A stretch of DNA of 64,000 nt from positions 11,964 through 75,963 of the forward strand of contig CAZXLF010000007.1 in assembly GCA_964642015.1 (NCBI GenBank), given 5' to 3'. Source of the stretch: an uncultured Planctomycetia bacterium. Its GTDB lineage: Bacteria > Omnitrophota > Gorgyraeia > 2-02-FULL-51-18. The notes beneath the pieces are model-generated. The model searched no databases, had not been told where the DNA came from, and saw nothing but the letters and a program-made list of their open reading frames with translations. Position 1 is the first letter of the stretch, and each line of letters opens with the position of its first letter. Positions 24,251-50,604 of this stretch are shown here, in pieces. The position numbers and the translations under genes are program-made.

Positions 24251-24706
24251 TTAGATGTGAAAAGCGTATTGGGAGGCCGGTTTACTCTTCTTGAATCGGC
24301 GCGCCTCATCGATCAGATCTTTTAAAGTGGCGCCGGCCAGACCTGTTTCAATAGAAGATTTGAATTTGTCCCAAAAGATAAAATTAGCGATCGCTACTTC
24401 GTCGGTTTCGGGCGTTAATTTTACTTTATTGTTTAATTCCAAGGTATTTTTATTGCTCAAAACATAAAAAAGAGAGTCTAGACGGATCTCGGAAGGTTTT
24501 TTCGTCAAAACATATCCGCCCTGAGGTCCGCGCACGCTTTTGACAAACCCTTTTTTCTTAAGCGCATTGAGAATCTGCTCAAGATACGCGACGGAAATGC
24601 CTTCTTTCTTCGCTATTTGAGTCACGGAAAGTGAACCCTCACCGTACCGGCTAGCTAGCACCAGGACGGCCTTTAAGCCATAAAGTGTACGGGTAGAAAA
24701 TTTCAT
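24251..24706 (-). CDS. Rrf2-family transcriptional regulator (CymR/IscR-like, no obvious Cys-cluster ligands)
   Basis: The N-terminal HTH (TRTLYGLKAVLVLASRYGEGSLSVTQIAKKEGISVAYLEQILNALKKKGFVKSVRGPQGGYVL) is typical Rrf2. It is the last gene of the sulfur cluster. Confidence 0.85.
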   Translation of the reverse strand: MKFSTRTLYGLKAVLVLASRYGEGSLSVTQIAKKEGISVAYLEQILNALKKKGFVKSVRGPQGGYVLTKKPSEIRLDSLFYVLSNKNTLELNNKVKLTPETDEVAIANFIFWDKFKSSIETGLAGATLKDLIDEARRFKKSKPASQYAFHI

Positions 24707-24714
24707 AAATTTTT

Positions 24715-24945
24715 TTATCTTTGACTAGCTCTGATCTTCACGATCTGAAGCTCGGCTTTCATTTCATCGAGCTGTTTGAGAATAAGATCCTGATTCGCCA
24801 GAATTTTATCAAGCTTGACAGAGACCATATCCGTATTGACAGGTGTCGGAGCGGGAGCTGTATTATTTTCATCCGCAAACGAATGATTGACCGCAAAAAA
24901 CAAAAGCGATCCAAAAAAAATTGCGAGTATAAGATTTTTTTTCAT
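24715..24945 (-). CDS. small secreted coiled-coil protein, hypothetical
   Basis: 76 aa with a signal peptide (MKKNLILAIFFGSLLFFAVNHSFA) followed by a helical segment. Confidence 0.45.
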   Translation of the reverse strand: MKKNLILAIFFGSLLFFAVNHSFADENNTAPAPTPVNTDMVSVKLDKILANQDLILKQLDEMKAELQIVKIRASQR

Positions 24946-24961
24946 TTTGCTCCTTTACAGA

Positions 24962-25252
24962 TTAATGGGACAAGATCTTTGCTTTATCGGATTTTATCTT
25001 TTCTTCTACGGAATAAGCCGAACCTGAAAAATGTTTGCTGAACTTATCGAAGATCCGCGAGATCAATAACACAAAAGCATGCACAAAACATGCGGTTCCC
25101 AATCCTGCGGCAATGCCAAAATGCTCAAAAGGATAAGGATATTTTTGTTTTTGAAAAAGTATGTCAGTATAACGGTAAACGAGATAAAAAGCGGCTGCAG
25201 GCGCAATGATCGACAAAATAACAAAAAAGATCGAGGGAAGTTTTTTCCTCAA
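24962..25252 (-). CDS. small two-TM membrane protein, hypothetical
   Basis: 96 aa with two hydrophobic helices ([19 protein letters not shown]; [19 protein letters not shown]). It overlaps the upstream gene's stop by 4 nt. Confidence 0.45.
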
Positions 25253-25767
25253 GAAGCACTGTCTCCGGTAACTGGCTCCACCTTAATGCCGAGTGACTCC
25301 AGAAATTTGATGCCTTTGACAAGATTTTCTTCGGTGCCTTCGAGCTCAAGCATCATTTCACCAACGGTTTCCGTGACACGCGCTTTGCGGATATTAGGCA
25401 TGATGTCGTATTTTTTCGCCATCGTGAATACCGCGGGCTTTTTGATCTGGTCAGGAGGAAAAACAAGCGTCACTCTTTTTTTAGACAGCTTTGCTCCACC
25501 GGCAATCGCGGGAATGATGGAAATATCATCCCCATCCTTTAAAGAGGTATCCTGACCCTGCAAAAAACGAATGTCTTCCTCATTCACGTAAATATTCACG
25601 AACCGCCGCAGTTTTCCATCGCCGTCGCAGAGACGTTCTTTGATACCGGGATGTTTTTTTTCAAGATCCGAAAGCATTTGATTAATGTTGGATGCATCGC
25701 AGCTGACTTCGCTCTGGTTGTTCGTCAATTTCTGCAAAGGGGTCGGGATCCTTACTTTGATTGCCAT
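25249..25767 (-). CDS. MoaD/CysO-like ubiquitin-fold sulfur-carrier domain fused to a C-terminal NIL domain
   Basis: Residues 1-90 match MoaD ([14 protein letters not shown] ... [12 protein letters not shown]...[16 protein letters not shown], with Gly-Gly at 89-90). Residues ~95-172 match a NIL domain ([46 protein letters not shown]). A strong SD (AAGGAGG) lies 4 nt upstream of the ATG. Confidence 0.75.
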
Positions 25768-25915
25768 ACTTCCTCCTTAAATGAGCGCAGGATTTACGCT
25801 ACAAAAGCGTAATTCTACATCGCGAATTCCCGCCACAGAACACTGGCGGGTCCGCGGGTCCGCCGCGCTTTTTGGCGGATATCCTGAGAAGATTCCTCAG
25901 AATCGACGAAGGATC
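25768..25915 (-). promoter_or_regulatory. structured GC-rich leader (candidate attenuator or riboswitch-like element) upstream of the MoaD-NIL gene
   Basis: The minus-strand RNA contains hairpins AUUCUGAG/CUCAGGAU and UUACGCU/AGCGUAA. A central GC-rich segment (CCGCC-N9-GGCGG-ACCCGCGGAC-CCGCC-N9-GGCGGG) has mutually exclusive pairings. It stands out in a 45%-GC genome. Confidence 0.4.
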
Positions 25916-27178
25916 TCACTTTGAGACCCAAACATCTTCTTTTATCTTTGTTTCATTTCTCAGTGAACGTTCGAACGACTCTAAACTCGGCTTGATGCGG
26001 TAAGGTTTTCCGATATGATCGGAAACCGCTTCTTGTGTTTTTAATCCATTCCCGGTGATGCAAATAACACATGATTCATTTTTCGGAATAACACCGTTCT
26101 CGATCAACTTTTTAGTCGACGCAACCGTGACACCGCCGGCTGTTTCGGTAAAAATGCCTTCCGTACTTGCCAAAAGTTTTATTCCGTCGATGATCTCTTG
26201 ATCCGTCACTGTTTCTCCGTTGCCACCGCTTTCTTTCATCGCGTCAAGTGCATAAGGGCCATCAGCGGGATTACCGATCGCCAAAGATTTTGCGATCGTC
26301 TTGGGCTTCACGGGTTTTATAATTTCGCTTTTCTGTCTCAAAGCCGTTACGACCGGTGAACAGCCTTCGGCTTGCGCCGCATAAATTTTCGAATTTAATG
26401 AATCGATCAATCCCAATTTTTTAAATTCATTGAACGCTTTCCAAATTTTTACCAAAAGCGAACCGCTCGCAACGGGCACGACAACGTGTTGAGGGACACG
26501 CCAACCCAATTGTTCCATGATCTCGTATCCATAGGTCTTTGAACCTTCGGCATAATAAGGGCGAATATTGATATTTACGAAAGCCCAGCGATAACGTGCT
26601 GCGATCTCGGCACAGAGTCGGTTGACGTCATCATAATTGCCTTCGACGGCAACAAGATTGGGCGCATACGTCAATGATCCGATCACTTTTCCAAGCTCAA
26701 GATCCGCCGGAATAAAAATAAAGCGGTTAAGCCCAGCCCATGCGGCTTGCGCACTTACTGAACCGGCAAGATTTCCCGTGGAAGCGCAAGCGACAGTTTT
26801 AAAACCAAGTTCTTTTGCTTTCGTCAGAGCGACCGCAACCACGCGGTCTTTAAAGGAAAGTGTAGGATGACATACTGAATCGTCTTTAATGTAAAGTTCT
26901 TTCATTCCCAACTCTCGCGCGAGATTGTCTGCACGGAATAAAGGAGTAAAGCCCGCATGAAAACCTACAGTCGGATGCTTGTCGATCGGAAGCAGATCGC
27001 GGTAGCGCCAAATACTTTTCGGACCTTTTTCGATCTTTTCTCGGGAGATAACTTCTTTGATCTTGTTATAGTCGTAATCAACTTCAAGTGAACCGAAGCA
27101 AAATTCGCAGACATAGATCGACTCGATCGGATAAAGCCGATGGCATTCTCTGCATTTTAAACCTTTGACGTAACCCAT
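25916..27178 (-). CDS. threonine-synthase-family PLP enzyme with an N-terminal zinc ribbon (ThrC / cysteate synthase / MetM-like)
   Basis: The N-terminus (C-R-E-C ... C-E-F-C) forms a zinc ribbon. The PLP lysine motif is HPTLSFKDR. The Gly-rich loop is TGNLAGS. Length 420 aa. Confidence 0.8.
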   Translation of the reverse strand: MGYVKGLKCRECHRLYPIESIYVCEFCFGSLEVDYDYNKIKEVISREKIEKGPKSIWRYRDLLPIDKHPTVGFHAGFTPLFRADNLARELGMKELYIKDDSVCHPTLSFKDRVVAVALTKAKELGFKTVACASTGNLAGSVSAQAAWAGLNRFIFIPADLELGKVIGSLTYAPNLVAVEGNYDDVNRLCAEIAARYRWAFVNINIRPYYAEGSKTYGYEIMEQLGWRVPQHVVVPVASGSLLVKIWKAFNEFKKLGLIDSLNSKIYAAQAEGCSPVVTALRQKSEIIKPVKPKTIAKSLAIGNPADGPYALDAMKESGGNGETVTDQEIIDGIKLLASTEGIFTETAGGVTVASTKKLIENGVIPKNESCVICITGNGLKTQEAVSDHIGKPYRIKPSLESFERSLRNETKIKEDVWVSK

Positions 27179-27252: not shown

Positions 27253-28275
27253 TCACTTCTTCTCAGTTGTTTCAACTTTCGTCTCCGAAATCTCTTTCAA
27301 GAACCGCGTATCATAAAGGAACTTCAAATCCGGATCTTTTTTAAGAAAACCGGCATGGTAAGCGGCGAGCGCCTGCGCTCTCACAGTGGACGGAAGAGGA
27401 TCCGTGGTAAATTCCACGCGATTCCATGCCCGGTCCAGCAGTTCTTGAGACAGAGGCTTACCTGTTTCTTTCTCGATCTCCTTTTTAAAAACGACTTTGG
27501 CTTCTTCAGGATTCGAACGGATCCAATTCGTGATCTTTACGTGCGTCTCGAGGAAACGCTTCACCAGGGCGGGATGTTCTTCAAGAAACTTCGCACGAAC
27601 AAGTACGACCGTCGTCGCATACCGGCCATCTTTCCAAAGAGAGGCTTCATCCAAAAATACTTTTCCTCCCGCCGTTTGTTCCAAGATAGAAACCCACGGC
27701 TCGACGGTCCACGAAGCGTCGATTTCTTTTTTAAGGAACAACGTCACATGATCTGCATTTGAAACAGGGATCACCTGAACATCGCCACCCACTTCTTTTA
27801 ACTTCAACCCTTGTTTGTCAAGCCACGAACGAAGCGAAACGTCCTGTGTATTTCCAAGCTGCGGAGAAGCTACTTTCCTTCCGTGAAAATCTTCGGGCTT
27901 TGTAATACCGCTATCCGAGCGGATCACCAGCGCCGCACCGCCTGAACTTGAACCCGACACAATGCGCACCGCTTCGCCTTCCGATTTCACATAGGCATTG
28001 ATCGCCGGACTAGGACCAATATAGGCGATATCCAGCTTTCCTGCGAATAATGCCTCAATGGCCGAAGGACCGGCGTTGAATATTTTCCAGTCTACTTCCG
28101 CGTTCGGCGACAAATTATCTTCAAACCAGTGATTCGCGTGACCGATCACTCCTTGAGCGTGCGTGATGTTTGAAAAATGTCCAACGCGGACTTTTGTCTG
28201 CGTTGGATCCGCCGAAGCTTTAGTGGCGGATCCAAAAAGGCTGATTGCAACCAACAGTAAGATTAACTGCTTCAT
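27253..28275 (-). CDS. ABC transporter substrate-binding protein, NMT1/SsuA/TauA family (sulfonate/nitrate/taurine type)
   Basis: Signal peptide MKQLILLLVAISLFGSATKASA (start placed at this internal Met, 28275) is followed by an SsuA-like fold (KVRVGHFSNITHAQ...LDIAYIGPSPAINAYVK). Confidence 0.8.
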   Translation of the reverse strand: MKQLILLLVAISLFGSATKASADPTQTKVRVGHFSNITHAQGVIGHANHWFEDNLSPNAEVDWKIFNAGPSAIEALFAGKLDIAYIGPSPAINAYVKSEGEAVRIVSGSSSGGAALVIRSDSGITKPEDFHGRKVASPQLGNTQDVSLRSWLDKQGLKLKEVGGDVQVIPVSNADHVTLFLKKEIDASWTVEPWVSILEQTAGGKVFLDEASLWKDGRYATTVVLVRAKFLEEHPALVKRFLETHVKITNWIRSNPEEAKVVFKKEIEKETGKPLSQELLDRAWNRVEFTTDPLPSTVRAQALAAYHAGFLKKDPDLKFLYDTRFLKEISETKVETTEKK

Positions 28276-28298
28276 TTTCTTTCCAACTCCAAAATTTT

Positions 28299-29129
28299 TT
28301 AACTTTTTTTTCCGGATAGCCAAAACCACCCTGCCCATGTTGATTCTGATCTATCTAATCCCCAAATTCTTCTGACACGCTTTTCCAATAATCCAAAAAC
28401 CAACATGTCCATGAATACTCCGATGGATATGATCACGATCATCACCGCGATCACCTGACTCATGTCGTTTAATTCTCTGCCCATGTTCAAGAGATGCCCG
28501 AGTCCGAGACTCACAAAAAGGATTTCGCCGGCCATCAGCGAGCGCCACGCGAATGACCAACCCTGTTTTAAACCCGACAGGATAGAAGGCAGCGCCGCCG
28601 GCAAAACCACGTCGGTGAACATACACATGCCTGAGGCACCCATGTTGCGGCCTGCGCGCAGATAAATAGGTTGAATATTTTTTACACCAGAATCCGTCGC
28701 AATAGTCACCGATAAAAGTGAACCCATCACGACCACGAACGTGATCGCCGATTCATTGAGACCAAACCAAAGTATCGCAAGCGGCAGCCAGCAAATACTG
28801 GGCAGCGTTTGAAGTCCGGAGAAAAAACCACCCAGCGTTTCATCTAAAAGTTTTGACTTTCCGATAACCAAGCCCAAAGCAATGCCGAAAAAAACGGAGA
28901 TCGAATAACCGATCAGAATTCTTTTCAAACTCACACCGATCGCGATGAAAAACGTTTTATTTTTAAAACCGTCCGCCAGCGTCTCTAAAACCTGTCCGGG
29001 CGAAGGGAAAAGATACTGCGGCCAAAGTTTGAGACTGAATAAAAATTGCCACAACATTAAAAGAAGTAGATAAAAAACAATCTGTCTCAAAATTTTAAAG
29101 AATAAGTTGTTAAAATTCAGCTCAAACAT
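28299..29129 (-). CDS. ABC transporter permease (NitT/TauT family, SsuC-like)
   Basis: 276 aa with 6 TM helices and an EAA-like loop region (LKQGWSFAWRSLMAGEI). Confidence 0.8.
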   Translation of the reverse strand: MFELNFNNLFFKILRQIVFYLLLLMLWQFLFSLKLWPQYLFPSPGQVLETLADGFKNKTFFIAIGVSLKRILIGYSISVFFGIALGLVIGKSKLLDETLGGFFSGLQTLPSICWLPLAILWFGLNESAITFVVVMGSLLSVTIATDSGVKNIQPIYLRAGRNMGASGMCMFTDVVLPAALPSILSGLKQGWSFAWRSLMAGEILFVSLGLGHLLNMGRELNDMSQVIAVMIVIISIGVFMDMLVFGLLEKRVRRIWGLDRSESTWAGWFWLSGKKS

Positions 29130-29139
29130 TGATTTGATA

Positions 29140-30069
29140 TCAAACGTTGAAATAAGGTTCCATACTCAAGTAGCGCTCTCCCGAATCCGGGAAAACGGTC
29201 ACTACCGTTTTATTGGATCCTAATGCTTTGGCAATTTTGAGCGCGCCGATACAAGCCGCACCGCATGAAATTCCGGCGAATATTCCTTCTTCACGCGACA
29301 AGCGCTTGGCTATTTGATAAGCTTCATGGTCATCAACCGTGATGATCTCATCAATAATGTCACGATTCAGCACTTCTGGAATAAATCCTGCGCCGATACC
29401 CTGGATCATGTGAGGACCAGGTCTGCCTCCGGATAGTACGTTCGAACTTTTAGGTTCGACTGCGATGATCTTTATTTTTGGATTGTGTTTCTTCAATACT
29501 TCACCCACACCGGTGATCGTCCCGCCTGTTCCGACTCCGGCGACGAACGCATCGAGTTCTCCGTCCGTATCCTTTAATATTTCTTTGGCTGTTGTTTTAC
29601 GGTGCATTGCCGGATTGTCGGGATTCATGAACTGCTGCGGCATAAACGCGTCTTTTCTTGTGGCAATGATCTCGCGCGCTTTTTCGACAGCGCCTATCAT
29701 ACCTTCTTTGGCAGAGGTCAGAACAATTTCCGCGCCGAAACTTTGGAGAATTTGAATGCGCTCCTGGCTCATTGATTCGGGCATCGTCAGGATCACTTTG
29801 TATCCTTTGACGGCGCCTACGATCGCAAGACCGATACCCGTGTTTCCACTTGTAGGCTCGACGATCACCGATCCGGACTTCAAGATCCCTTTTTTCTCGG
29901 CTTGCTCGATCATATTGAGCGCAATCCTGTCTTTTACACTTCCGCCCGGATTGAACATCTCGAGTTTTGCATAAACAGTCGCCGAATTTTTTTCAACCAC
30001 CTTTGCAAGCTTTACCATAGGTGTGTTGCCGATCAAATCCAAAATACTAGCGCTTATCTTATTATTCAT
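29140..30069 (-). CDS. cysK: cysteine synthase (O-acetylserine or O-phosphoserine sulfhydrylase, CysK/CysM family)
   Basis: The PLP lysine motif is NPGGSVKDRIALNMI. Also present are TSGNTGIGLA and GVGTGGTITG. Length 309 aa. Confidence 0.9.
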   Translation of the reverse strand: MNNKISASILDLIGNTPMVKLAKVVEKNSATVYAKLEMFNPGGSVKDRIALNMIEQAEKKGILKSGSVIVEPTSGNTGIGLAIVGAVKGYKVILTMPESMSQERIQILQSFGAEIVLTSAKEGMIGAVEKAREIIATRKDAFMPQQFMNPDNPAMHRKTTAKEILKDTDGELDAFVAGVGTGGTITGVGEVLKKHNPKIKIIAVEPKSSNVLSGGRPGPHMIQGIGAGFIPEVLNRDIIDEIITVDDHEAYQIAKRLSREEGIFAGISCGAACIGALKIAKALGSNKTVVTVFPDSGERYLSMEPYFNV

Positions 30070-30281
30070 GAATGCAGGTCTCCTCCGCCCATATAAAAAA
30101 TGAATTCCACTTTGTCTCCTTCTTTGATCTGTGTCGTTTCATAATCAAGCTTCTGTAAAATATTCTCATTGATCTCTACGGTCACAAGCTCCGGTCTCAT
30201 GCGCCACTTCGTCAAAAGGTCCGTGACGGACATTCCTGTTTTGATCTCGCTGGGTTTTCCATTCAACGTAATATTGATCAT
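30066..30281 (-). CDS. ThiS/CysO-like sulfur-carrier protein with a 4-residue extension (DLHS) after the Gly-Gly motif
   Basis: MINITLNGKPSEIKTGMSVTDLL...EINENILQKLDYETTQIKEGDKVEFIFYMGGG-DLHS is ThiS-like throughout. The stop overlaps the cysK start by 4 nt. An upstream in-frame ATG at 30326 is less likely because it would overlap the JAMM gene. Confidence 0.75.
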   Translation of the reverse strand: MINITLNGKPSEIKTGMSVTDLLTKWRMRPELVTVEINENILQKLDYETTQIKEGDKVEFIFYMGGGDLHS

Positions 30282-30288
30282 CTCAGTG

Positions 30289-30675
30289 CTAGGCAATTTG
30301 GATCTCCTCTTCAGTGACTTTTTCATCCTGGATCTTAAAAGAACGCAGCACAGGTTTTTTCATGTCGGAAAGTGACACGATCAGGTAACTGACTTCCGGA
30401 TAGAACGCAAGCCGTATGTCTTTTTGCGAAGGATACGCTTCACTGGCTACGTGCGAATGAAAAATACCGGACATCTCGATACCGAGTTTTCTCATTTCCT
30501 TAAATACAACAAGCTGTTCCTTCGGGTCCATAAAATAGCTGATGCTCGCGTTATCAAGATTGGTCATTGGAAAAAATTTGTCAGGCCCCGCCAAAATCCC
30601 GCACGCCTCATTCGGAAAGCCTTTTTTCGCGTGACCGATCATCTGCTCGTAAATATCTTTGGAAATTTTAATCAT
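30289..30675 (-). CDS. JAMM/MPN+ zinc metalloprotease (Mec+/CysLO/HcyD/QbsD-like)
   Basis: The catalytic Glu is in PNEACGILAG. The JAMM motif is HSHVASEAYPSQKD (HxHx7Sx2D). About 130 aa. Confidence 0.85.
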   Translation of the reverse strand: MIKISKDIYEQMIGHAKKGFPNEACGILAGPDKFFPMTNLDNASISYFMDPKEQLVVFKEMRKLGIEMSGIFHSHVASEAYPSQKDIRLAFYPEVSYLIVSLSDMKKPVLRSFKIQDEKVTEEEIQIA

Positions 30676-30676
30676 G

Positions 30677-31516
30677 TCAAATATTACTTCCGACATTTCT
30701 ATCGACCGGCGTCAAAACCCCGGCCTTTGAAACTTGGTAATCCGTATCCAGTTCCTGACGCGCTACTTTTTCAATTTCATCTTTCAATGAGCTCATGATC
30801 TTTGTCTGGATCGTTAAAAGATGCGGATCCTGTTCTCTTCTAGGCCTTGGGAGCTGAATCGCATATTCTTTTTTGATCGTTCCGGGCCGGGCCGTAATTT
30901 CAAACACACGGTCCGATAAAAATGTTGCTTCACGCACATTATGCGTCACAAAAAGCACCGTGCATTTTGTCTTCTGCCAGATATCCTGCAATTCCTCCTG
31001 AAGCATCTGGCGTGTCTGTGCGTCCAATGCCGCAAAAGGCTCATCCATCAAAAGGATCTTCGGATTCATTACAAGCGCCCGGGCGATAGCAGCACGCTGT
31101 TTCATGCCTCCGGAAAGCTGATGCGGGTGCGCGTTCACAAACCGCGCTAAGTGCACGGCTTTGATCGCTTCAAGCGCGCGCACTCTTCTTTCCTGCTCCG
31201 GAACACCGGCGACCTTCAAGCCGAATTCCACATTATTCAGCACAGTCAGCCACGGAAAAAGGGCGGCTTCCTGAAAAACCACAAGACGGTCCTTTGAAGG
31301 GCCTTCAACTATCTTGTTATCAACGAACACCTGCCCTGAATCCGGAAATTCAAGCCCGGCGATCAAAGAAATGAGCGTGGATTTTCCGCATCCTGATGGG
31401 CCGATCACACAAATGAACTCACCTTCTTCGATCGTGAAATTAATGTCGTGAAGCGCCTGCACACGCTGGTCTTTTTGCTTAAAACTTTTATGAACGCGTT
31501 TGAAAACAACTCTCAT
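30677..31516 (-). CDS. ABC transporter ATP-binding protein (SsuB/TauB-like)
   Basis: Walker A is GPSGCGKST, the signature motif is LSGGMKQR, and Walker B is ILLMDEP. Confidence 0.88.
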   Translation of the reverse strand: MRVVFKRVHKSFKQKDQRVQALHDINFTIEEGEFICVIGPSGCGKSTLISLIAGLEFPDSGQVFVDNKIVEGPSKDRLVVFQEAALFPWLTVLNNVEFGLKVAGVPEQERRVRALEAIKAVHLARFVNAHPHQLSGGMKQRAAIARALVMNPKILLMDEPFAALDAQTRQMLQEELQDIWQKTKCTVLFVTHNVREATFLSDRVFEITARPGTIKKEYAIQLPRPRREQDPHLLTIQTKIMSSLKDEIEKVARQELDTDYQVSKAGVLTPVDRNVGSNI

Positions 31517-31565: not shown

Positions 31566-32306
31566 TTATTTACCTTCTGACTTCTGTCCTCTGATTTCTG
31601 ACTTCTGAATATGTAAACCGCATTCTTTGTGTTCCGGATTTTCCCACCACCAACGGCCGGCACGAATGTCTTCTCCAGGTTTAATGGCTCTCGTGCAAGG
31701 CGCGCAACCGATCGATGGATAACCCAGATCGTGCAGTTTGTTATACGGAACATTGTTCTTCCGGATATAATTCCAAACATCCTCATTCGTCCAAGCCGCC
31801 AGCGGATTTATCTTAAAAATATTTCCATGCGCATTGTCGACCTCTATTTTCTGAACGTCTGCTCTTGTCACCGATTGATCGCGGCGAAGGCCCGTAATCC
31901 AGGCATTTAGATCTTTGAGAGCCCGATTTAACGGCTCGACTTTACGTATTCCGCAGCATTCTTTTCTATTGTCGATTGATTCTCTGAACGAATAAAAACC
32001 CTTCGCGCGTTCCAATGCTTCGACTTTTTCAAAATTAGGAAAGTAGGATTCGATATTAATCTTATACCTAGAACGAATTCGATCCATCAATTCATATGTT
32101 TCTTCATTGAGCCGTCCTGTATCCAAAGTAAAAATTTTTACTTTCGGCTCAAGTTTCGAAACCATGTCAATCAATACTACATCCTCTGCGCCAAAGGATG
32201 AAGCCAACGCAATCTTCGGATGAAAATCCGTAAGAGCCCATTGGAGCAGCTCCTCGGGAGATTTTTTTTCAACGTCTGAATTGATCTTTTTGATGTCAAA
32301 TGGCAC
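31566..32306 (-). CDS. cysH: adenylylsulfate (APS) / PAPS reductase, thioredoxin-dependent CysH family with Fe-S cysteine pairs
   Basis: A Cys pair (ECCGIRKV) and CAPC suggest a [4Fe-4S] APS-reductase type. The C-terminal ECGLH motif is present. A 14-aa low-complexity tail ([14 protein letters not shown]) is encoded by short tandem DNA repeats. Confidence 0.85.
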
Positions 32307-33585
32307 TGAAATATTCCACGCTTTTCAAAATAATCCCTCCCCCGCGGACATCATGGTCGCTAACCAAAACAAAACGTCCCGTTTCGGGGATCAGATCATA
32401 GGTATCGAAAGCAATCGGCTTTTTGGTTGAGATAATGATCTCCGCTACTTCGTTTTTGGCAACTTCATGTGCGTTCTTGGAAATTTCCTCGAGCGTCGAA
32501 GAATTGATCACTCTGATGATCGATTCGATCACGCATTCCATTTCCTGTGTGGCGATCTTTAGAAGATATTTGCCGCCTTTTTCGAGGTGTTTGTTACCCA
32601 TCCAGAAAATATTGGCCTGAAAACGGTCAGACACGATCGGTTTCTGCTTGGGAATGCAGCCGATATCGCCGCGTTCCACGAAAATCTGTTCTTCCATCGT
32701 AAAACCCGTTGATTCACCCGCATAAACAGCTGTAGGTGTTTTGTCATCCGCAGGATGCCATTTCTCGATCGTTTTTATCTTCGTAGACTTTCCGGACGGC
32801 AAAAAAAGGATCTCATCACCCGCAGAAATCGTTCCTGCTTCGACACGGCCTGCGATGATACGCCGTTTGTCGAATTTGTAAACGTCCTGCACCGGGAAAC
32901 GAAAATACGCTTTTGAACGGTCATCATTGGAAGAGAAATTATCAAGGATCTCCAAAATACTCTCGCCTTTATACCACGGCATTTTATCGCTGCGTTTGGT
33001 CACATTTTCCCCGTGATAAGCGGAGATAGGGATAAAAGTCCTAGGTTTAATGTTGATCGTCGCAAGATACTTGCTGTAAATCTCTCTGGTCGTATTGAAA
33101 ACTTCTTCGGAATAATTCACAAGGTCCATTTTGTTGACGACGATCGCGATCTGCTTGATCCCCAAAAGCGATAAAATATACGCGTGGCGTTTGGTTTGTT
33201 CCTGAATGCCTTCTTCCGCATCGATCATCAAGAACGCCACATCGGCATTCGAAGCGCCGGAGATCATATTTTTCAAAAACTCCTTATGACCCGGAGCATC
33301 GATTACCACATAATTTCTTTTCTTGGTCTTAAAAAACATCTGCGACACGTCGATCGTAATGCCTTGATCGCGCTCTTCCTCAAGCGCATCCAATAAAAAC
33401 GCAAACTCAAATCCTTTTCCTTGGTCTTCGCAAACTTTTTGCACATGGCTGATCTTAGATTCGGGAATGAACCCTGTTTCGTGCAATAAACGCCCGACAA
33501 GCGTCGACTTTCCGTGATCGACGTGACCGACCATGACGAATTTCAAAGTTTCGGTGGATGTAGGTGATTCCAAAGTCGTTTGCAT
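32296..33585 (-). CDS. cysN: sulfate adenylyltransferase subunit 1 (GTPase)
   Basis: G1 is [11 protein letters not shown]3 is DAPGH and G4 is NKMD. Length 429 aa. It lies downstream of cysD. Confidence 0.9.
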
Positions 33586-33586
33586 G

Positions 33587-34396
33587 TTACATGTATCCCT
33601 TCGTTCTCAATTTCTGCATAGCATATGTGTCTTCCTGGTCCTGTGCGCGGCCGGCGCGTTCGGAAGTCTTTCCCTGCTTGAGCTCAGCGATGATTTCATC
33701 AACATTGCTTGCCGGCGAATCGATCGGAAATGTGCACGGTGCACAGCCAAGACTCCGATAGCGCTTGCCGTTCTTTGAAAAATAAAGGCTCACAACGGGA
33801 ATATTCTCGCGTTTGATGTATTCCCACACATTTACTTCGGTCCAATGAAGCAAAGGATGGATGCGAATATGCGTATTTTCATCAAAATTCGTTTTAAATT
33901 GATCCCAAAGTTCAGGCGGCTGGTCTTTAAAGTCCCATTCAAAATTTTTATCGCGCGGAGAAAAATAGCGCTCTTTGGCGCGCGTGCTTTCTTCGTCGCG
34001 GCGAATCCCTAGGATCAATCCTTTATAATCATACTGCTCCATGATCTGCTGAAGACCGATGGTTTTGAGTGCCGTGCAGCAATTGATGCGGCCTTTCGTG
34101 TAATTCATTCCTTCTTCCAGCGCTTTTTTATTCTGACCGACGATCAGATTGAGATTCCATTCTTTCGCATAGCGGTCGCGGAATTCGATCATCTCAGGAA
34201 TTTTGTAGCTGGTATCGATATGCACCAGCGGAATAGGGACATGACCCAAAAAAGCTTTTCTGGCCAGCCAAAGAAGCACATTTGAGTCTTTGCCGATCGA
34301 CCAGAGCATAGCCAGCTTTTTAAATTTTTTGTACGCCTCGCGCAAAATGAATATTGATTGATTCTCTAATTTGTCTAAGTGATCCACTTGGTCCAT
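33587..34396 (-). CDS. cysD: sulfate adenylyltransferase subunit 2
   Basis: The PAPS-reductase-like fold motif is [19 protein letters not shown]. Length 269 aa. It is separated from cysN by 1 nt. Confidence 0.9.
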
Positions 34397-34509
34397 TGCA
34401 AAAAATCCTTTCGGTCAACCCGTATTAATATAACTAATTTAGTATTATATATGTTAAAAATAATATACAGTACATAATCTAAATAGTCAAATATAATTTC
34501 AAAAAAATT

Positions 34510-35417: not shown

Positions 35418-36317
35418 TTAATCTGTGCAATTAACGGGTTGATCGACATAGTGAGGCCACGCGTCGACCCAGCCTGAATTATGACTTGCATTAGGCACTT
35501 CGACGATTTTTGCACATAGTGGATGGTTCATTTTCTGTAAAAATTGATGAGCAATAAATGATGGGATCACTTTATCTTCTTTTCCTATAAAGTGCTCTTG
35601 CGGAATGGATGATACTTTATAAGCAACATCGATCGGATTCAAAGATCCATGCAAATTACTGACGCCATGATAATGATTCACGGATTCATGGTCCAAATTG
35701 CCAGCGATCGTTCTCAAAGAAACAACATCATTTCTCCTTGCCGCAAGCAATACAGCGACCGCGCCGCCGCCCGAATAGCCGATCAAATGGATCGATTTGG
35801 CCTGCGCTTTTTCTTTAAGCAGATCAATCGCCTGATCCATAGAGGAGATCACCTCCTCAGAGAACCGTTTGGATGACCAATAATCAGAATTGCACCGCGA
35901 ATCTTTTTCGGACATACCATATTGGCAAGGTCTTGATAAATATGCCACATTGTCGGAACCGTCTTTCGAAGCCAGAGTCAATACCAAAGGGTTCCGAGGC
36001 GTTGGGTCATCGGATAAATTATTTCTTGAAAGCCAAGCCGAACCATCCCCTTCAATATATATCTTCAAAGATGTTCTAGGTTTATTGATCTTGTCATAGG
36101 ACAGGAGATGAAAGTGAGAAGTGGGTAAAATTGATTTCTCAAAACCTACGCTTTGGGCAATACGATCAGCTTTATTCGTGGAATCTACTGAAGAGGAAAC
36201 AGTCGCACAACCTACATGAGCCAAGACAAATACGAAAAGCAAAGACCAAAAAAGGAATGACCGCCATAAAAACCGCAGTGTCTGTTCGGTAAAGATCATT
36301 AGAAGCTTTGCGATCAA
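35418..36317 (-). CDS. alpha/beta-hydrolase lipoprotein
   Basis: The lipobox is LAHVGC, the nucleophile elbow is GYSGGG, and a downstream His lies in PNASHNSGW. Confidence 0.65.
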   Translation of the reverse strand: MIAKLLMIFTEQTLRFLWRSFLFWSLLFVFVLAHVGCATVSSSVDSTNKADRIAQSVGFEKSILPTSHFHLLSYDKINKPRTSLKIYIEGDGSAWLSRNNLSDDPTPRNPLVLTLASKDGSDNVAYLSRPCQYGMSEKDSRCNSDYWSSKRFSEEVISSMDQAIDLLKEKAQAKSIHLIGYSGGGAVAVLLAARRNDVVSLRTIAGNLDHESVNHYHGVSNLHGSLNPIDVAYKVSSIPQEHFIGKEDKVIPSFIAHQFLQKMNHPLCAKIVEVPNASHNSGWVDAWPHYVDQPVNCTD

Positions 36318-39300
36318 AAGTTATAATTCAAAGCTACATTACCTGAATGACTGACATAACCTGATTTAAGGTCCAAATTATAGACGCCTTCTAACGAGAC
36401 GTTATTTTTCGATAAAAAAGTAACACCAGTTCCTAAATCAAAGCTGTTCTGAGCAGGCCTGAAACCGCTCGTCTTAAACGATGCGCCGCCGCCGGTAAAT
36501 GTCGAAGTAACCTCTTCTTTATCTCCGATAAAGTCATAAAGCCACTCGCCGTGCACTTCAGGAATATAAGTGCCATTGTGATCCGTAATAGGATAAGCGA
36601 TCTTCATGCCAAGCCCAGATTGTAAGAAATCAAAACCTTCGGCATTCACGTGAAGGTCGAGATCTCCCGCGCCCGTTTCGGTATAACTATCAAGATTGAG
36701 ATGAATGTATTCCAGCGACACAAGCGGAGTGACCCTGAAACCGCGATCTTCTATGTCGTAACGTACGCTCATTTTCCAGTCACATTCCTGACCATCGTAG
36801 CCGGCATCAGCTGTACGATCAAGGCCTGAAAAAGCGATCCTTCGAGAATTATCATAGTTATTCCAAGCAAAAGTAAAAGAAGTATCCATCGACCAACGAT
36901 CTACTCCATAAATTGCATAGAACGTGGCTAAATAATTATGGATATCCGCATCAGCTTCCACATTCTTTGAATTCATAACAGTCCTCGCATATCCTCCGGC
37001 AAGACCAAGCCTAACTTGATCAGAAACAAGGCCATCCGCTCCCCAAACCGTTCCCCAAAGACCTGAATCGTAACCATTAATACCCTGGTGGTCATGCTGA
37101 TCCGAAAAATTGGTGAACCCTTTAAACCAAATCCCACTATCCTTGAACACAGTCTTCATAGATTCATCGCCGGTAGAAATGCCTGTCCTGCGAGAATTTG
37201 CTTCTCCGTATTGACTGGATACTCCGGTATCGCGAATCTGGTCAAAATGCATCCCCAGAGCACGCGTGTAATTAGTGACCGCGGAAAAGCTTCCTTGGGT
37301 GACACCGCCATTCACGTTTGGGATCAACTGCTGAAGAGCTTTGTCATAATCAGAAGGGGATAATGTGAACAGCAAATTCTCGACAGTACCCATATCTCCT
37401 GTTGCCGTGGAAGAAATTGAATCCAACACAGCGCCTACAGCAGCGCGATTGCTGGTGCTCGCAATACTCGAGGAAGGAATAAGCGTCGGGGTGATCATAA
37501 TATCACCCGCCGTATTAGCAGCGGTGAATGTATAACGATTGCTGTTAGAAGTGACCGTGATGGACTGCCCATTGCTGCCGCCCGCCGAACCGTCCAATAT
37601 CTTTAACGCTGTCCCTGAAGCCAACGCACCTGTGACAGTAGCATTGACCGTGGTACCGGACGAAATAGATGCATTCCCTGTTGATGCGATATTACCAAAA
37701 ACCGAAGAGCTGTTAAGTGTGGTTTTGATCACATTGGTTGCAGATGTCGTAACTACACCTCCACCTGCTCCATTGACCGTCAAGGTATTAGCTTGCAAAT
37801 TCAGCACTCCTGTGCCTGCAAGCGTCAAATTGCCTTCATCCGTTCCGTTTCCACCTACGGTCAAAGTGCCTCCGCTATTCACTGTGGTAGTAGTCGCAAA
37901 AATATTCGCGTTATTAATGACTTCCCCACCGTTCACATTGACCGCCGTGAGCCTGTTGGCAACACCCGTAGCGCCTATGGCACTCGATACAGTAGAAGCA
38001 CCTAGAAAAGTCAAAGTGCCTTGGTTTACGCCACCTGTAGATACGGAGCCGCTGATGCTTTTACCATCTGAAATATTCACCGTTCCGGCCGCGCCAAAAG
38101 CCAACGTGGTGGCAGTGGTGTTTCCCTGTAAGTTGACCGTATTGGCTCCGGCCACATTGACCGTGGTAGCTGCGATATCTCCCGTGAACGTCGTAGTGGC
38201 ATTTTCACCGGCATTAATCGTACCTAAAGAAGATCCAGACGAGATAGACCCTGTAACCGTACCACCCTTTACAGTCAAAGTACCTTGACCTGCGGTGGTC
38301 GCTGAAATAGTGGGAGAAGTAAGGTTTGATCCATTGGCCATGACCACTGTGCCGTTACCCCCGAAATTCAATGTGCCTGCCACACCTGTGTCCACGTTGC
38401 CATTAAATGTCAACGTGCCCGTACCAGTCGTTGTCGCGCCATTACTGCCAGCATTGATCGCCTTCGCGAACACATTAGCGGTGAATATGTCCGCTGCGCC
38501 TGTCGCACCCGCGTTTAAAACCGAGATCCTGTGCGTGTTATCTGAGCCGACCTGACCTGTAACCGTTTGGCTTCCCCCTACAAGGGTCAAAGTTCCGTCA
38601 TTGTCAGCAGAAGCGGTTACTGCGGCAGTCAAATTTTTTCCACTGCCCACCTTTACTATGGAACTAGCGTTGAAAAGTATCAATGAATTGGCGCTCACAT
38701 TCCCGTTGAATGTCGTCGTGTTATCGACCGCATATATCGCGGACAACTTGTGGGTCGCTCCGATATCACTGTCAAAAATCGCATTGGCATAATAACCCGG
38801 CTTAAGTACTCCTTCTCCGTCAGAAGCACCGTTGATCGTCCCGGTAACAGTCTGAATGGAAGATCCTGACAAGATCAAATAGGAGACCCCAACGTTGTCA
38901 TCTAATACAAAACCGCCTGTGCTCGTAACCGTTGAGCCGTTGGCATACAACGCAGAAGCAGCCCCAGCACCGCCTGAATTCGCCGTAATGGTCGTGAGCC
39001 CGGCGATCTGCAAGTTGTCGCCCACACTCATCGTAATAGACTTGGTATTCGTGGCCTCATTGTTCGTAAGATTCAAATTCCCACCGACCGTGAGAGCATG
39101 GGTCACAGCGACTGTAGTATTCAAATTATCATTATTCGCATTTTGTACCGTAAAGTTCGAGCCGACATTGCCTGAATCAATATACACCGTAAGATCGCCC
39201 GTTCCGGCGACGCCATTAGGATGAACATTTACCAAACCAGTACTGGCCGTATCTGAAAGAGCGCCGATCACGAATGTATTTTTACCGTTACCATCATCAG

Positions 39301-39523
39301 CTATGTTATCGTTCGTGACCGTCAGTGTATGTCCATTAATATCAATGGACTGGCCGCTAAACGCATCTGAGGCATTTCCGACATCAGTGCCGAGATGCGT
39401 GCCGGCCGAAGCCCATTGGCCATTACCTGTCAAATTCTGATTTGCTGCAAAACCCGTAGAAATCCACAAGGAAGGAATAAATATTGGGACGAACACAAGC
39501 GCGAATATTGTCTTTTTAATCAT
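36314..39523 (-). CDS. type Va autotransporter (Gly/Thr/Asn-rich beta-helical passenger plus C-terminal 12-strand beta-barrel translocator)
   Basis: A signal peptide runs from the internal Met (MIKKTIFALVFVPIFIPSLWISTGFA). The passenger (~750 aa) is degenerate and repetitive. The C-terminal ~280 aa alternate hydrophobic residues and end in the aromatic terminal motif ...ALNYNF. Confidence 0.85.
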   Translation of the reverse strand: MIKKTIFALVFVPIFIPSLWISTGFAANQNLTGNGQWASAGTHLGTDVGNASDAFSGQSIDINGHTLTVTNDNIADDGNGKNTFVIGALSDTASTGLVNVHPNGVAGTGDLTVYIDSGNVGSNFTVQNANNDNLNTTVAVTHALTVGGNLNLTNNEATNTKSITMSVGDNLQIAGLTTITANSGGAGAASALYANGSTVTSTGGFVLDDNVGVSYLILSGSSIQTVTGTINGASDGEGVLKPGYYANAIFDSDIGATHKLSAIYAVDNTTTFNGNVSANSLILFNASSIVKVGSGKNLTAAVTASADNDGTLTLVGGSQTVTGQVGSDNTHRISVLNAGATGAADIFTANVFAKAINAGSNGATTTGTGTLTFNGNVDTGVAGTLNFGGNGTVVMANGSNLTSPTISATTAGQGTLTVKGGTVTGSISSGSSLGTINAGENATTTFTGDIAATTVNVAGANTVNLQGNTTATTLAFGAAGTVNISDGKSISGSVSTGGVNQGTLTFLGASTVSSAIGATGVANRLTAVNVNGGEVINNANIFATTTTVNSGGTLTVGGNGTDEGNLTLAGTGVLNLQANTLTVNGAGGGVVTTSATNVIKTTLNSSSVFGNIASTGNASISSGTTVNATVTGALASGTALKILDGSAGGSNGQSITVTSNSNRYTFTAANTAGDIMITPTLIPSSSIASTSNRAAVGAVLDSISSTATGDMGTVENLLFTLSPSDYDKALQQLIPNVNGGVTQGSFSAVTNYTRALGMHFDQIRDTGVSSQYGEANSRRTGISTGDESMKTVFKDSGIWFKGFTNFSDQHDHQGINGYDSGLWGTVWGADGLVSDQVRLGLAGGYARTVMNSKNVEADADIHNYLATFYAIYGVDRWSMDTSFTFAWNNYDNSRRIAFSGLDRTADAGYDGQECDWKMSVRYDIEDRGFRVTPLVSLEYIHLNLDSYTETGAGDLDLHVNAEGFDFLQSGLGMKIAYPITDHNGTYIPEVHGEWLYDFIGDKEEVTSTFTGGGASFKTSGFRPAQNSFDLGTGVTFLSKNNVSLEGVYNLDLKSGYVSHSGNVALNYNF

Positions 39524-39651
39524 TATCCGTCTCGTTTCATATACCGATAATTTTAGATCGGGTAAAAGACACAAATAATGAAACTACACTTCCACAAATT
39601 TTTAGTTTATGAAAGTAATGAACGTGTTTTTATAGATTTACAGTATTATAT

Positions 39652-48817: not shown

Positions 48818-49318
48818 ATGCGGCTGAAAAACTCCATAACCCTTTCTGTGTTAATATATAAAGAAATGACAGATACCAAACGCCGCGATACGATCATTAC
48901 GATATTCGTCATTCTCTGGATCGGTCTCTTTTATTACGAATCCGTGCGCTATAATTATTTGAATCCTATTTGTCACCGAGAACTTCCGAAATGTAAATTC
49001 CTTTTTCCTCCAGCAGGCTGGATCATGTTCTTTCAGGTTGGCCAAACAGAAGTGCATTGCGAAGTTTATGGGCAAAAAGATGGAAAACTCGAGTTGATCG
49101 ATCCTCATAAAATTTTCCCGAATCATTGGCTAGGTTATGACAACATCCGGCGTAACGTATTAATAACAGCTCTTGATCCTGATTATTCCGCATCATTTTG
49201 TGAATACCTGAAGCGAAAATTTCCGGAATACGAGACATTTGCAGTCACTGAAGCGATCTATCCTTCGGTCACACAGTATAGGGACAAAAAAATCTTAAAG
49301 CTGGCTTACAAATGTTAG
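48818..49318 (+). CDS. hypothetical protein translationally coupled to the HTTM-DCC gene
   Basis: 166-aa ORF with one TM segment (IITIFVILWIGLFYY) and conserved-looking Cys/His/Trp residues. Its stop overlaps the downstream start by 7 nt. Confidence 0.5.
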   Translation: MRLKNSITLSVLIYKEMTDTKRRDTIITIFVILWIGLFYYESVRYNYLNPICHRELPKCKFLFPPAGWIMFFQVGQTEVHCEVYGQKDGKLELIDPHKIFPNHWLGYDNIRRNVLITALDPDYSASFCEYLKRKFPEYETFAVTEAIYPSVTQYRDKKILKLAYKC

Positions 49319-50604
49319 AAAAAATAAAGATCCTTTGGAATAAAGCTTTTCTGGAAGAGCGTCCGTCGATCAGTCTTTCATTATTCAGACCGTTCGTGGC
49401 TTTCACGGTGGGTGCGCATGTTATTCCCACGCTTCTGCATATGCAGGACAATTATCTTGCCGGAAGTTTCCGAGAGAAAAACCCCTCTTTTTTTACAATC
49501 GGCGCGCTCGTCCTTGTCGATAAAAGTCCTGATTGGCTAGTATATTTCTTCACGGTCCTTTTCTATGTGTCTCTTTCTTTCTTTTTCGTGGGATTTTTTT
49601 CTCAAATTTCGTGTATCCTTCTGATGCTGTGCCTTTACTTTTTTTATGCGCTGAATTCGCTTCACATCGGCACATTATCATTCGATATCTTGCTCGTGAC
49701 CATGTTTCTCATGTGCATTACCGATTATCCCGGAGATCATTTTTCAGTCGATGCATTGCTAAGCGCAGGTTCTTTAACCTACAAAAAGAAAAAGCCTTTT
49801 TTTGTACAGCGGCTTTTGCAACTCCAAATTGCATCTACTTATTTTTTCACAGCGCTCTGTAAATTCACCGCCAGAGGCAATTGGCTCCTAGATAACCCAA
49901 TCTACTATCTTTTGAACTCACCGCCCGACAGCGTCGTGAAACACTTCCCTCTGCGCGAATTTTTCGCGGGGCAGCCGACCTTATGCTATTTCATTGGAAT
50001 CTCGATAATCTTGTCTGAAATCTCGATGCCGTTCCTGCTTTTCGCTAAACGTACGAGAATATTTGGAATCATCATGGGATTCTTTTTTCACATCATGCTG
50101 ATCATCACGCTCCATGTGCCGACGATATTCTTTTTCCTTTTTCCTCCGCAGCTTCTTTTATTCATCGAACCTGAAAAGATCGTTGCTTTCATTGATAAAA
50201 AAAGAGAGCGGAACATATCGGAAAAGCAAGATACCGTGATCTTTGATGGTCACTGCCAATTCTGCGTGGGCAGTGTTCAAAAATTACAGTCGCTGGATCT
50301 TTTCGGAAAAACAAAGCTATTAGATTACCAGACTTATGAAGATATTTCTTCCTTTGATAATCGGCTCACGAAGGAAAAATGCCACAGTCAAATGCAGGTT
50401 GTGACGGCCGACGGCAGGCTTTTCGGAGGGTTTTATGCGTTCAGATATTTATCGCTAAGGCTTGTGCTTCTTTGGATACTAGTGCCTTTGTTCTATTCTC
50501 CCGGCTTCCAGTGGATCGGGAACACGGCTTATGATTTTATCGCCAAAAACCGTTATCTTTTTCACCGAAAAGGATCCTGCAATAACAACCACTGCTTCAG
50601 ATAA
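49312..50604 (+). CDS. HTTM (vitamin K-dependent gamma-carboxylase-like) domain fused to a DCC-family thiol-disulfide oxidoreductase domain (DUF393)
   Basis: The N-terminal ~300 aa form a polytopic HTTM-like domain. The C-terminal region TVIFDGHCQFCVGSVQKL carries the FDGxCxxC motif of DCC proteins. Confidence 0.75.
   Translation: MLEKIKILWNKAFLEERPSISLSLFRPFVAFTVGAHVIPTLLHMQDNYLAGSFREKNPSFFTIGALVLVDKSPDWLVYFFTVLFYVSLSFFFVGFFSQISCILLMLCLYFFYALNSLHIGTLSFDILLVTMFLMCITDYPGDHFSVDALLSAGSLTYKKKKPFFVQRLLQLQIASTYFFTALCKFTARGNWLLDNPIYYLLNSPPDSVVKHFPLREFFAGQPTLCYFIGISIILSEISMPFLLFAKRTRIFGIIMGFFFHIMLIITLHVPTIFFFLFPPQLLLFIEPEKIVAFIDKKRERNISEKQDTVIFDGHCQFCVGSVQKLQSLDLFGKTKLLDYQTYEDISSFDNRLTKEKCHSQMQVVTADGRLFGGFYAFRYLSLRLVLLWILVPLFYSPGFQWIGNTAYDFIAKNRYLFHRKGSCNNNHCFR

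Follow-up and report, generated by a model that had tools for sequence, protein, structure and literature searches.

The 64,000-nucleotide stretch analysed here (the window) covers positions 11,964 to 75,963 of contig CAZXLF010000007.1 in assembly GCA_964642015.1, from a bacterium deposited as an uncultured member of the Planctomycetia and placed in the Omnitrophota by GTDB. Its minus strand carries a block of three overlapping genes, encoding a JAMM/MPN+ metalloprotease, a ThiS-family sulfur carrier protein with residues beyond its terminal glycines, and a CysK-type cysteine synthase dependent on pyridoxal phosphate (PLP). The block is enclosed by a minus-strand operon of approximately 10 kb and 14 genes, in the order cysD, cysN, cysH, ATP-binding cassette (ABC) transporter ATPase, JAMM, ThiS-like carrier, cysK, ABC permease, SsuA-family binding protein, threonine-synthase-like (ThrC-like) PLP enzyme, a MoaD-like carrier fused to a NIL domain (MoaD~NIL), two small open reading frames (ORFs) and an Rrf2-family regulator. 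Genes overlap by 20 nt (ABC ATPase and JAMM), 8 nt (JAMM and carrier) and 4 nt (carrier and cysK), the carrier thus being translationally coupled on both sides, to JAMM upstream and to CysK downstream. A pattern search restricted to one genome per species yielded 28 related loci, almost all from metagenome-assembled genomes (MAGs) of Candidatus Omnitrophota or MAGs labelled 'uncultured Planctomycetia', and the JAMM-carrier-CysK arrangement is conserved in all of them.

The carrier is encoded by an ORF at 30326-30066 (minus strand) which matches the Pfam family ThiS (PF02597, E 1.7e-11), and the protein passes the NCBIfam thiS hidden Markov model (HMM) TIGR01683 with 65.8 bits against a cut-off of 37.45. 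A first-pass annotation of this DNA, made from the sequence alone, gave the protein 71 amino acids (aa), but that form begins at an internal ATG (30281). Homologues begin MPSTE.I.ITLNG, a public gene call of the identical protein (P0002) is 76 aa long, and a TTG at 30296 is preceded 7 nt upstream by GAGGAG; we therefore assign the gene to 30296-30066, with a TTG start, a product of 76 aa and an 8-nt overlap with the JAMM stop codon. The C-terminus reads ...EFIFYMGGGDLHS and then stop, so that the ending YMGGG-DLHS, as given in the first-pass annotation, can be read directly in both DNA and translation (DLHS codons at 30069-30080, with the invariant GGG just before them at 30081-30089). The protein combines the β-grasp ThiS/MoaD fold with a conserved C-terminal Gly-Gly (G70, G71 and G72 are shared by all of 42 sequences), but canonical thiamine ThiS proteins end at Gly-Gly, whereas here DLHS follows. 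The closest solved structure is 2K5P/3CWI (E 1.5e-14), a 'ThiS' which likewise has a residue after FMGGG and which we take to be a structural genomics target from Geobacter metallireducens, although the search output does not give the organism.

The suggestion that this tail is a removable extension is borne out as a family-wide trait: among the 120 best homologues, which are 74–100% identical over the core, YMGGG is invariant and all but three, which end at GGG, carry at least one further residue (117/120). The tails are mostly 1–7 residues long, occasionally more, and neither their sequence nor their length is conserved. A sequencing or frameshift artefact, with the carrier truly ending at GG once the sequence was corrected, was considered and rejected, as the tail recurs in hundreds of independent assemblies. 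β-grasp sulfur carriers are activated only on a free C-terminal glycine, according to the established chemistry of ThiS, MoaD and CysO, and the tails, like the gene fusions described below, must therefore be cleaved after the glycines before the carrier can be used. The codons for Gly-Gly-Asp (GGA-GGA-GAC) place GGAGGA where the ribosome-binding site of cysK would be expected.

The cysK gene (29140-30069, minus strand; PALP, E 4e-81) starts at 30069, its ATG overlapping the carrier stop as ATGA. Its product passes the cysK equivalog TIGR01139 (454 bits vs a cut-off of 351) and fails cysM (311 vs 394), and its top matches in the PDB are CysK enzymes (O-acetylserine sulfhydrylase A, OASS-A), including CysK1 of Mycobacterium tuberculosis (2Q3B). 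Of the earlier description as a CysK/CysM-type sulfhydrylase overlapping the carrier by 4 nt, the overlap and the CysK type thus stand and the CysM type can be dropped.

In 12 of the 28 related loci (L004, L005, L006, L009, L011, L012, L014, L015, L018, L019, L023 and L029) the carrier has no stop codon and reads in frame into CysK, as in ...EFVFYMGGG-AVAEN-ILELIGQTPMV..., giving proteins of 377–396 aa (e.g. L005 9992-11131) with the consensus ...YMGGG-A(V)A..-ILELIGxTPMV.... A database search with one of these ThiS~CysK fusions returned 32 clusters in which both Pfam domains occur; they come from NCBI, JGI, ENA and Logan assemblies and, where named at all, are called only 'cysteine synthase (A)'. 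In a neighbour-joining tree of CysK domains (built without bootstrap) the fusions do not group apart but lie scattered among the separate forms, so the junction has switched between ATGA overlap and fusion several times. In our view the fusions speak strongly, at the genomic level, for a partnership between a CysK-type enzyme and a ThiS-type carrier, and a carrier fused at its C-terminus would need cleavage before activation, since the free glycine is required. The short tails look like a remnant left when the carrier and CysK frames separate, and their origin as a by-product of the junction is likely; this is compatible with the explanation we favour below.

The protease gene (30289-30696, minus strand; 135 aa) matches Prok-JAB (PF14464, E 7e-23). 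Its sequence includes NEACG and HSHVASEAYPSQKD, that is, an HxHx7Sx2D zinc site, in agreement with the EACG and HSHx7Sx2D motifs reported earlier, and the catalytic residues hold on realignment, E30, H80, H82, S90 and D93 being invariant in 27 orthologues. Its closest PDB match is 2KKS (E 3.7e-32), presumably a structural genomics target from Desulfitobacterium hafniense (its source is not named in the search output), and the Pyrococcus protease PfJAMM1 is also matched (5LDA, E 5.6e-9). The start codon is uncertain and may be Met8 (30675), where the 2KKS alignment begins. A JAMM motif of the HxHx7Sx2D type occurs only once in six frames of the window, and each related locus holds a single JAMM gene; both observations support the earlier idea that one JAMM serves two carriers, and the simplest reading of these loci would be that one protease acts on both.

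The second carrier gene, MoaD~NIL, is real and lies at 25249-25767 (minus strand), with matches to ThiS (PF02597, E 1.1e-17) and NIL (PF09383, E 3.4e-15). Residues 1–91 form the MoaD part, ending IIPAIAGG (25495-25500), and residues 92–172 the NIL domain. The best PDB match of the MoaD part is M. tuberculosis CysO (3DWG_C, E 4.4e-22), followed by 4N6E_B (E 9.4e-21), which has no fuller annotation than ThiS/MoaD family protein. The NIL part is similar to the C-terminal domain of MetN, a methionine importer (MetN2, 2QSW, E 0.0012), and could conceivably sense methionine. The fusion is common, with 4807 database matches, the best 120 of which all contain both domains; in these 120 the junction SIIPAIAGG is invariant, and the next residue is Ala in 102 and Ser in 16, with NIL after it. 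The CysK fusions, too, have alanine directly after GGG, giving the same P1' residue in both. AlphaFold2 models of the window MoaD~NIL and of a ThiS~CysK fusion, which give no interface information, have confident domains and junctions with a predicted local distance difference test score (pLDDT) below 50 (residues 88–91 and 68–83, respectively), consistent with exposed and probably flexible linkers. Because the C-terminus of the carrier is blocked, by NIL here and by CysK in the fused relatives, cleavage is obligatory in both cases.

Next to MoaD~NIL is the gene for the ThrC-like PLP enzyme (25916-27178, minus strand; PALP, E 7.4e-66; thrC TIGR00260, 306 bits), which has an N-terminal CxxC...CxxC zinc ribbon and in relatives always adjoins a MoaD-like carrier gene. 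By analogy with a system described below, we propose that it is a MetM-like homocysteine synthase. The 148-nt gap between these two genes contains a GC-rich hairpin (25844-25865; 9-bp stem, GGCGGACCCGCGGACCCGCC on the coding strand), with a T-run after the stem on the non-coding strand only; the gap is not conserved, and the two genes overlap in several relatives.

The operon opens with genes of sulfate assimilation, all on the minus strand. These are cysD (sulfate adenylyltransferase small subunit, 33587-34396; PAPS_reduct, E 1.7e-44; NCBIfam CysD subfamily, 376 bits vs a cut-off of 195; syntenic in relatives), cysN (sulfate adenylyltransferase GTPase subunit, 32296-33585; GTP_EFTU, E 1.6e-48; TIGR02034 CysN, 375 bits vs 336) and cysH (sulfonucleotide reductase, 31566-32306; PAPS_reduct, E 4.3e-55), whose translation shows the iron-sulfur motif CC...CxxC and ECGLH. 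CysH passes the adenosine 5'-phosphosulfate (APS) reductase subfamily model (TIGR02055, 286 bits vs 235) and CysN has no APS-kinase domain, hence the route is based on APS rather than 3'-phosphoadenosine 5'-phosphosulfate (PAPS). Their sequences identify CysDN and the APS-type CysH as the enzymes predicted to convert sulfate to sulfite.

When 1.84 billion representative proteins were searched exhaustively, 2715 relatives of the carrier were recovered at E <= 0.001. Most representatives with [FY][FY]MGGG have a tail or are joined to CysK, and canonical ThiS proteins, with HFVGGG, end at the glycines; at least seven matches are CysK fusions or fragments of fusions, approximately 45% identical to the query, and one continues after VGGG into ThiG-like sequence and was read by eye as a ThiS-ThiG fusion. 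The carrier belongs to a clade marked by [FY]MGGG and a tail, of which 2K5P and some carriers found together with MetY and ThiF are also members. In distant members of this clade the gene orders are as follows. A Zixibacteria MAG (L029) has Rrf2, CysH, JAMM, ThiS~CysK, sulfite reductase, TusA and ThiF; a Logan assembly (L033) has Rrf2, CysH, DUF2061, JAMM, tailed ThiS, CysK, sulfite reductase, TusA and a ThrC-like enzyme; an ENA metagenome (L031) has ThiS~CysK, sulfite reductase, TusA, a ThrC-like enzyme and MoaD; and a JGI metagenome (L034) has tailed ThiS, a MetY-type sulfhydrylase and ThiF. In the first three a small sulfite reductase (NIR_SIR) and TusA come directly after the ThiS/CysK pair (L029 11168-14310, L033 8080-9197, L031 2817-4184), accompanied by Fer4 ferredoxin-type matches in L031 and L033 and followed by the E1-type activating enzyme ThiF in L029. 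In two further loci from JGI and Logan data (L030 260-6129, L035 3140-7994) tetrapyrrole biosynthesis genes (GlutR, porphobilinogen deaminase, TP_methylase/HEM4, ALAD and GSA aminotransferase) lie beside the carrier, just upstream of ThiS and CysK or their fusion; their end product is probably siroheme, and this would be in keeping with cofactor supply to a sulfite reductase. These contexts consistently tie the tail-bearing ThiS clade to assimilatory sulfite reduction, an E1 and PLP enzymes predicted to form cysteine or homocysteine, and the Omnitrophota operon may be a form of the cluster in which these partners (sulfite reductase, TusA and E1) are now encoded at other sites.

Taking these observations together, we propose that the operon encodes protein-thiocarboxylate-dependent synthesis of both cysteine and homocysteine, by two PLP enzymes fed by two pro-carriers that the JAMM protease matures, and we put the probability of this reading at roughly 70%. 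JAMM would cut after the glycines, removing DLHS (or the fused CysK in relatives) and NIL to leave a free C-terminal glycine on each carrier. An unlinked E1 of the MoeB/ThiF/MoeZ type would then adenylate the glycine, and sulfur from sulfite reduction would convert it to a thiocarboxylate. CysK would form aminoacrylate from O-acetyl- or O-phosphoserine for attack by the ThiS thiocarboxylate, and the ThrC-like (MetM-like) enzyme would do likewise with O-phosphohomoserine and the MoaD thiocarboxylate, giving homocysteine. After an S-to-N acyl shift, the same JAMM would hydrolyse the carrier-Cys and carrier-Hcy adducts, freeing the amino acid and recycling the carrier. Formation of the thiocarboxylate and its use by CysK are steps that we infer by analogy. 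It is conceivable, though we would not expect it, that maturation is in addition a point of control, with the blocking group (the partner CysK in fused relatives, or the methionine-binding-type NIL) itself functional and JAMM cleavage gating sulfur flow to cysteine and homocysteine by amino-acid status, and that at the same time a bona fide CysK (OASS-A) has been recruited to a ThiS-type thiocarboxylate instead of free sulfide.

Several points weigh against this proposal. The most serious is that the synthase scores as an ordinary CysK equivalog, unrelated to the CysO-dependent CysM type; CysK equivalogs normally use free sulfide, and we know of no demonstration that one can use a protein thiocarboxylate, which is the main uncertainty in our interpretation. 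The carrier passes the thiamine ThiS model, the pairing of each carrier with its enzyme is read from adjacency and fusion only, and to our knowledge there has been no experiment on any member of this clade. In addition, neither the window nor the 10 kb around any Omnitrophota locus encodes an E1, a sulfite reductase or TusA, and activation of the carriers is consequently unproven for this organism. The first-pass annotation had already noted that the window lacks a ThiF/MoeB-type E1, and we found the same by two routes: a six-frame scan for the E1 motif GxGGxG...DxDx4-6N[LMIV]xR[QH] gave no match in the window, and a Pfam search of all candidate-sized window ORFs gave no ThiF. The same six-frame scan of all loci was negative except in L029. 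There is a precedent for such an arrangement, since the M. tuberculosis E1 is also unlinked and shared between carriers: moeZR (Rv3206c) lies far from cysO and cysM (Rv1335 and Rv1336) and serves several carriers.

Three other explanations of the locus deserve consideration. The ThiS-like protein might consume cysteine sulfur rather than supply it, acting as a cofactor carrier (e.g. for thiamine), while CysK used free sulfide and JAMM only matured the carrier. Iyer, Burroughs and Aravind (2006) put this forward for some neighbourhoods of ThiS with cysteine synthase, and it agrees with the passing of the thiS and cysK equivalog models by the carrier and the synthase, respectively. However, the genes of a canonical thiamine ThiS neighbourhood (thiG, thiF, thiH or thiC) were found neither in the window nor in the 28 related loci, and the clade departs from canonical ThiS in not ending at GG. 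Moreover its members include carriers fused to CysK and flanked by sulfite reductase, TusA and ThiF, or accompanied by MetY and ThiF, and the parallel pair of ThrC-like enzyme and MoaD matches a carrier-to-amino-acid pathway that has been demonstrated; we therefore think it unlikely that the carrier is a consumer. Alternatively, the resemblance of the protease to the archaeal desampylases PfJAMM1 and HvJAMM1 might suggest a ubiquitin-like modifier (SAMP/TtuB-like) attached to CysK or other proteins, with JAMM as the deconjugase and the fusions mimicking the conjugate, particularly as HvJAMM1 and SAMP1 reportedly regulate MoaE via covalent linkage. Yet nothing resembling an E2 or E3 gene is present, the neighbourhood is wholly one of sulfate assimilation and two sulfhydrylase-type PLP enzymes, and the fusions are linear, with the carrier N-terminal to CysK and a short flexible linker, as is typical of precursors and not of lysine conjugates, which makes protein modification highly improbable here.

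The least credible of the three, in our judgement, is that the tail has no function, being merely a by-product of the ATGA junction and its ribosome-binding site, with the carrier left untrimmed or idle and JAMM serving something else. The tail sequence is indeed unconstrained, and the GGA-GGA-GAC codons do supply a possible ribosome-binding site for cysK, but a β-grasp carrier needs its free C-terminal glycine carboxylate, the glycines never vary and JAMM is always the neighbouring gene, and the CysK fusions and NIL block make cleavage obligatory. We thus continue to favour thiocarboxylate-dependent synthesis of the two amino acids, for which several experimentally characterized systems provide comparisons.

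The first-pass annotation likened the block to mec+-cysO-cysM of M. tuberculosis (Rv1334, Rv1335 and Rv1336), and as a functional analogy this is apt: both have a JAMM protease, a β-grasp carrier and a PLP cysteine synthase in one block, in both an APS-type sulfate reduction feeds the pathway, and in both JAMM is expected to free cysteine from the carrier adduct. Gene for gene, however, the homology is crossed, with the CysO homologue beside the ThrC-like enzyme and a ThiS-type carrier beside CysK; the synthase is of CysK and not CysM type, and the carrier next to it is of the ThiS and not the CysO family. Its proposed assignment to the CysO type does not hold, as CysO (3DWG_C) is absent from its PDB matches (E up to 10) and is instead the top match of MoaD~NIL. 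Both carriers here are blocked precursors, unlike M. tuberculosis CysO, which itself ends at GG.

The HcyS/HcyD/HcyF/MetY system of Wolinella succinogenes is similar in having residues after Gly-Gly and a cognate metalloprotease, set among sulfate-assimilation genes. Work by Krishnamoorthy and Begley in 2011 on Wolinella HcyS/HcyD reportedly found that the extra C-terminal residue or residues of the ThiS-like carrier are removed by the metalloprotease. In Wolinella a carrier thiocarboxylate serves as the sulfur donor of MetY. L034, in which a tailed relative of the carrier lies with MetY and ThiF, has the same kind of partner. The window differs in that the partner is CysK (cysteine) and not MetY and that the operon contains neither E1 nor sulfite reductase, HcyS having been compared by description only.

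For the second pair the comparison is with MetM/MetO of Streptomyces albulus, where MetM and MetO reportedly act with Mec and MoeZ in an O-phosphohomoserine route to homocysteine (Hasebe et al. 2024). There too a ThrC-like PLP enzyme adjoins a MoaD/CysO-like carrier, and maturation by JAMM is reported to be required. The operon differs from it in the NIL domain fused to the carrier, and no SAM riboswitch is found by Rfam in the window (MetM and MetO were likewise compared by description only). The precursor fusions resemble Deinococcus MoaD-MoaE with DRJAMM, which cleaves that fusion, and Haloferax SAMP1-MoaE with HvJAMM1, where a carrier is fused upstream of its own partner and cut after Gly-Gly to be activated; in the fusions described here the partners are CysK or NIL, and amino acids rather than molybdopterin would be made.

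A system of this kind is therefore already known, both experimentally and from comparative genomics, by which Iyer, Burroughs and Aravind (2006, Table 1 rows 4c-4e) predicted associations of ThiS/MoaD, JAB and E1 with or without cysteine synthase and sulfate assimilation. Their component list is the same and includes Geobacter metallireducens and Desulfitobacterium hafniense, but the survey does not contain ThiS~CysK, MoaD~NIL, the ThrC-like partner or the E1-less form of the operon. Neither that survey nor the literature searched yielded the MoaD~NIL fusion, the pairing of a ThiS carrier with CysK, or an operon that unites both routes with a single JAMM; nothing joining NIL with MoaD was found, and a search directed at the protein-thiocarboxylate cysteine system gave no paper. 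Nor was the ThiS~CysK fusion found there, although no search for it by name was made. Only a few organisms (M. tuberculosis, W. succinogenes and Streptomyces) have been shown to make cysteine or methionine by protein-thiocarboxylate routes, and annotation still represents these routes poorly, naming their genes 'ThiS', 'cysteine synthase A', 'threonine synthase' or 'MoaD family protein'. This locus would combine both routes in one operon of the uncultured phylum Omnitrophota, with one protease and two differently blocked carriers. If this is confirmed, the metabolism reconstructed for these bacteria would have to be revised, more enzymes would be known to accept protein thiocarboxylates, and bacterial JAMM proteases would gain simple linear substrates. 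The result should be useful for annotating the metabolism of uncultured bacteria and will come as no surprise to specialists in sulfur carrier proteins.

The remaining genes of the operon, also on the minus strand, include an ABC transporter of the sulfonate/taurine type, consisting of the ATPase (30677-31516; ABC_tran, E 2.1e-34), the permease (28299-29129; BPD_transp_1, E 7.7e-21) and the SsuA-family periplasmic binding protein (27253-28338; NMT1_2, E 2.5e-33; TIGR01728 SsuA_fam, 225 bits vs 163.5). The start of the binding protein is uncertain and is probably Met22 (~28275), just ahead of a signal-like hydrophobic stretch. Two small conserved ORFs (24715-25252) have no assigned role and have counterparts at the same place in most of the long related loci; 24962-25252 encodes a hydrophobic, likely membrane protein of 96 aa and 24715-24945 a protein of 76 aa with a signal-like N-terminus, and their counterparts in L036 had no match in Pfam. 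The last gene of the conserved block encodes the Rrf2-family, CymR-like regulator (24251-24706; Rrf2, E 5e-27; CymR model, E 3.4e-26, under its cut-off), which probably controls the operon. Synteny of the operon extends over 27 Omnitrophota loci. The gene order and the downstream housekeeping genes are the same in loci long enough to show them, and the source names of MoaD~NIL and CysK homologues are also Omnitrophica, from which the window is assigned to an Omnitrophota bacterium. Clustering of flanking ORFs in the 28 loci gave no extra conserved partner, only housekeeping synteny (5-FTHF cyclo-ligase, RNase Y, YmdB and XseA).

Rfam had no match over the whole window, hence no riboswitch of any kind was detected, and a promoter and terminator scan gave promoter-like counts at chance level, from which the operon ends cannot be defined. 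The leader of cysD (34397-34509) is AT-rich, with a promoter-like TTGACT-17-TATATT at 34490-34462 (minus strand) and a near-palindrome, TATATAATACTAAATTAGTTATATTA, which from its sequence may be a candidate operator of the Rrf2 regulator. Elsewhere in the window, and unrelated to the sulfur-carrier operon, a 430-aa protein (49312-50604, plus strand) has an HTTM domain, of the family to which vitamin K-dependent carboxylase belongs, and at its C-terminus a DCC1-like thiol-disulfide oxidoreductase domain. A 1086-aa protein (36314-39574, minus strand) has repeats rich in Gly, Thr, Ser and Asn, and a C-terminal region that by eye resembles an autotransporter β-barrel.

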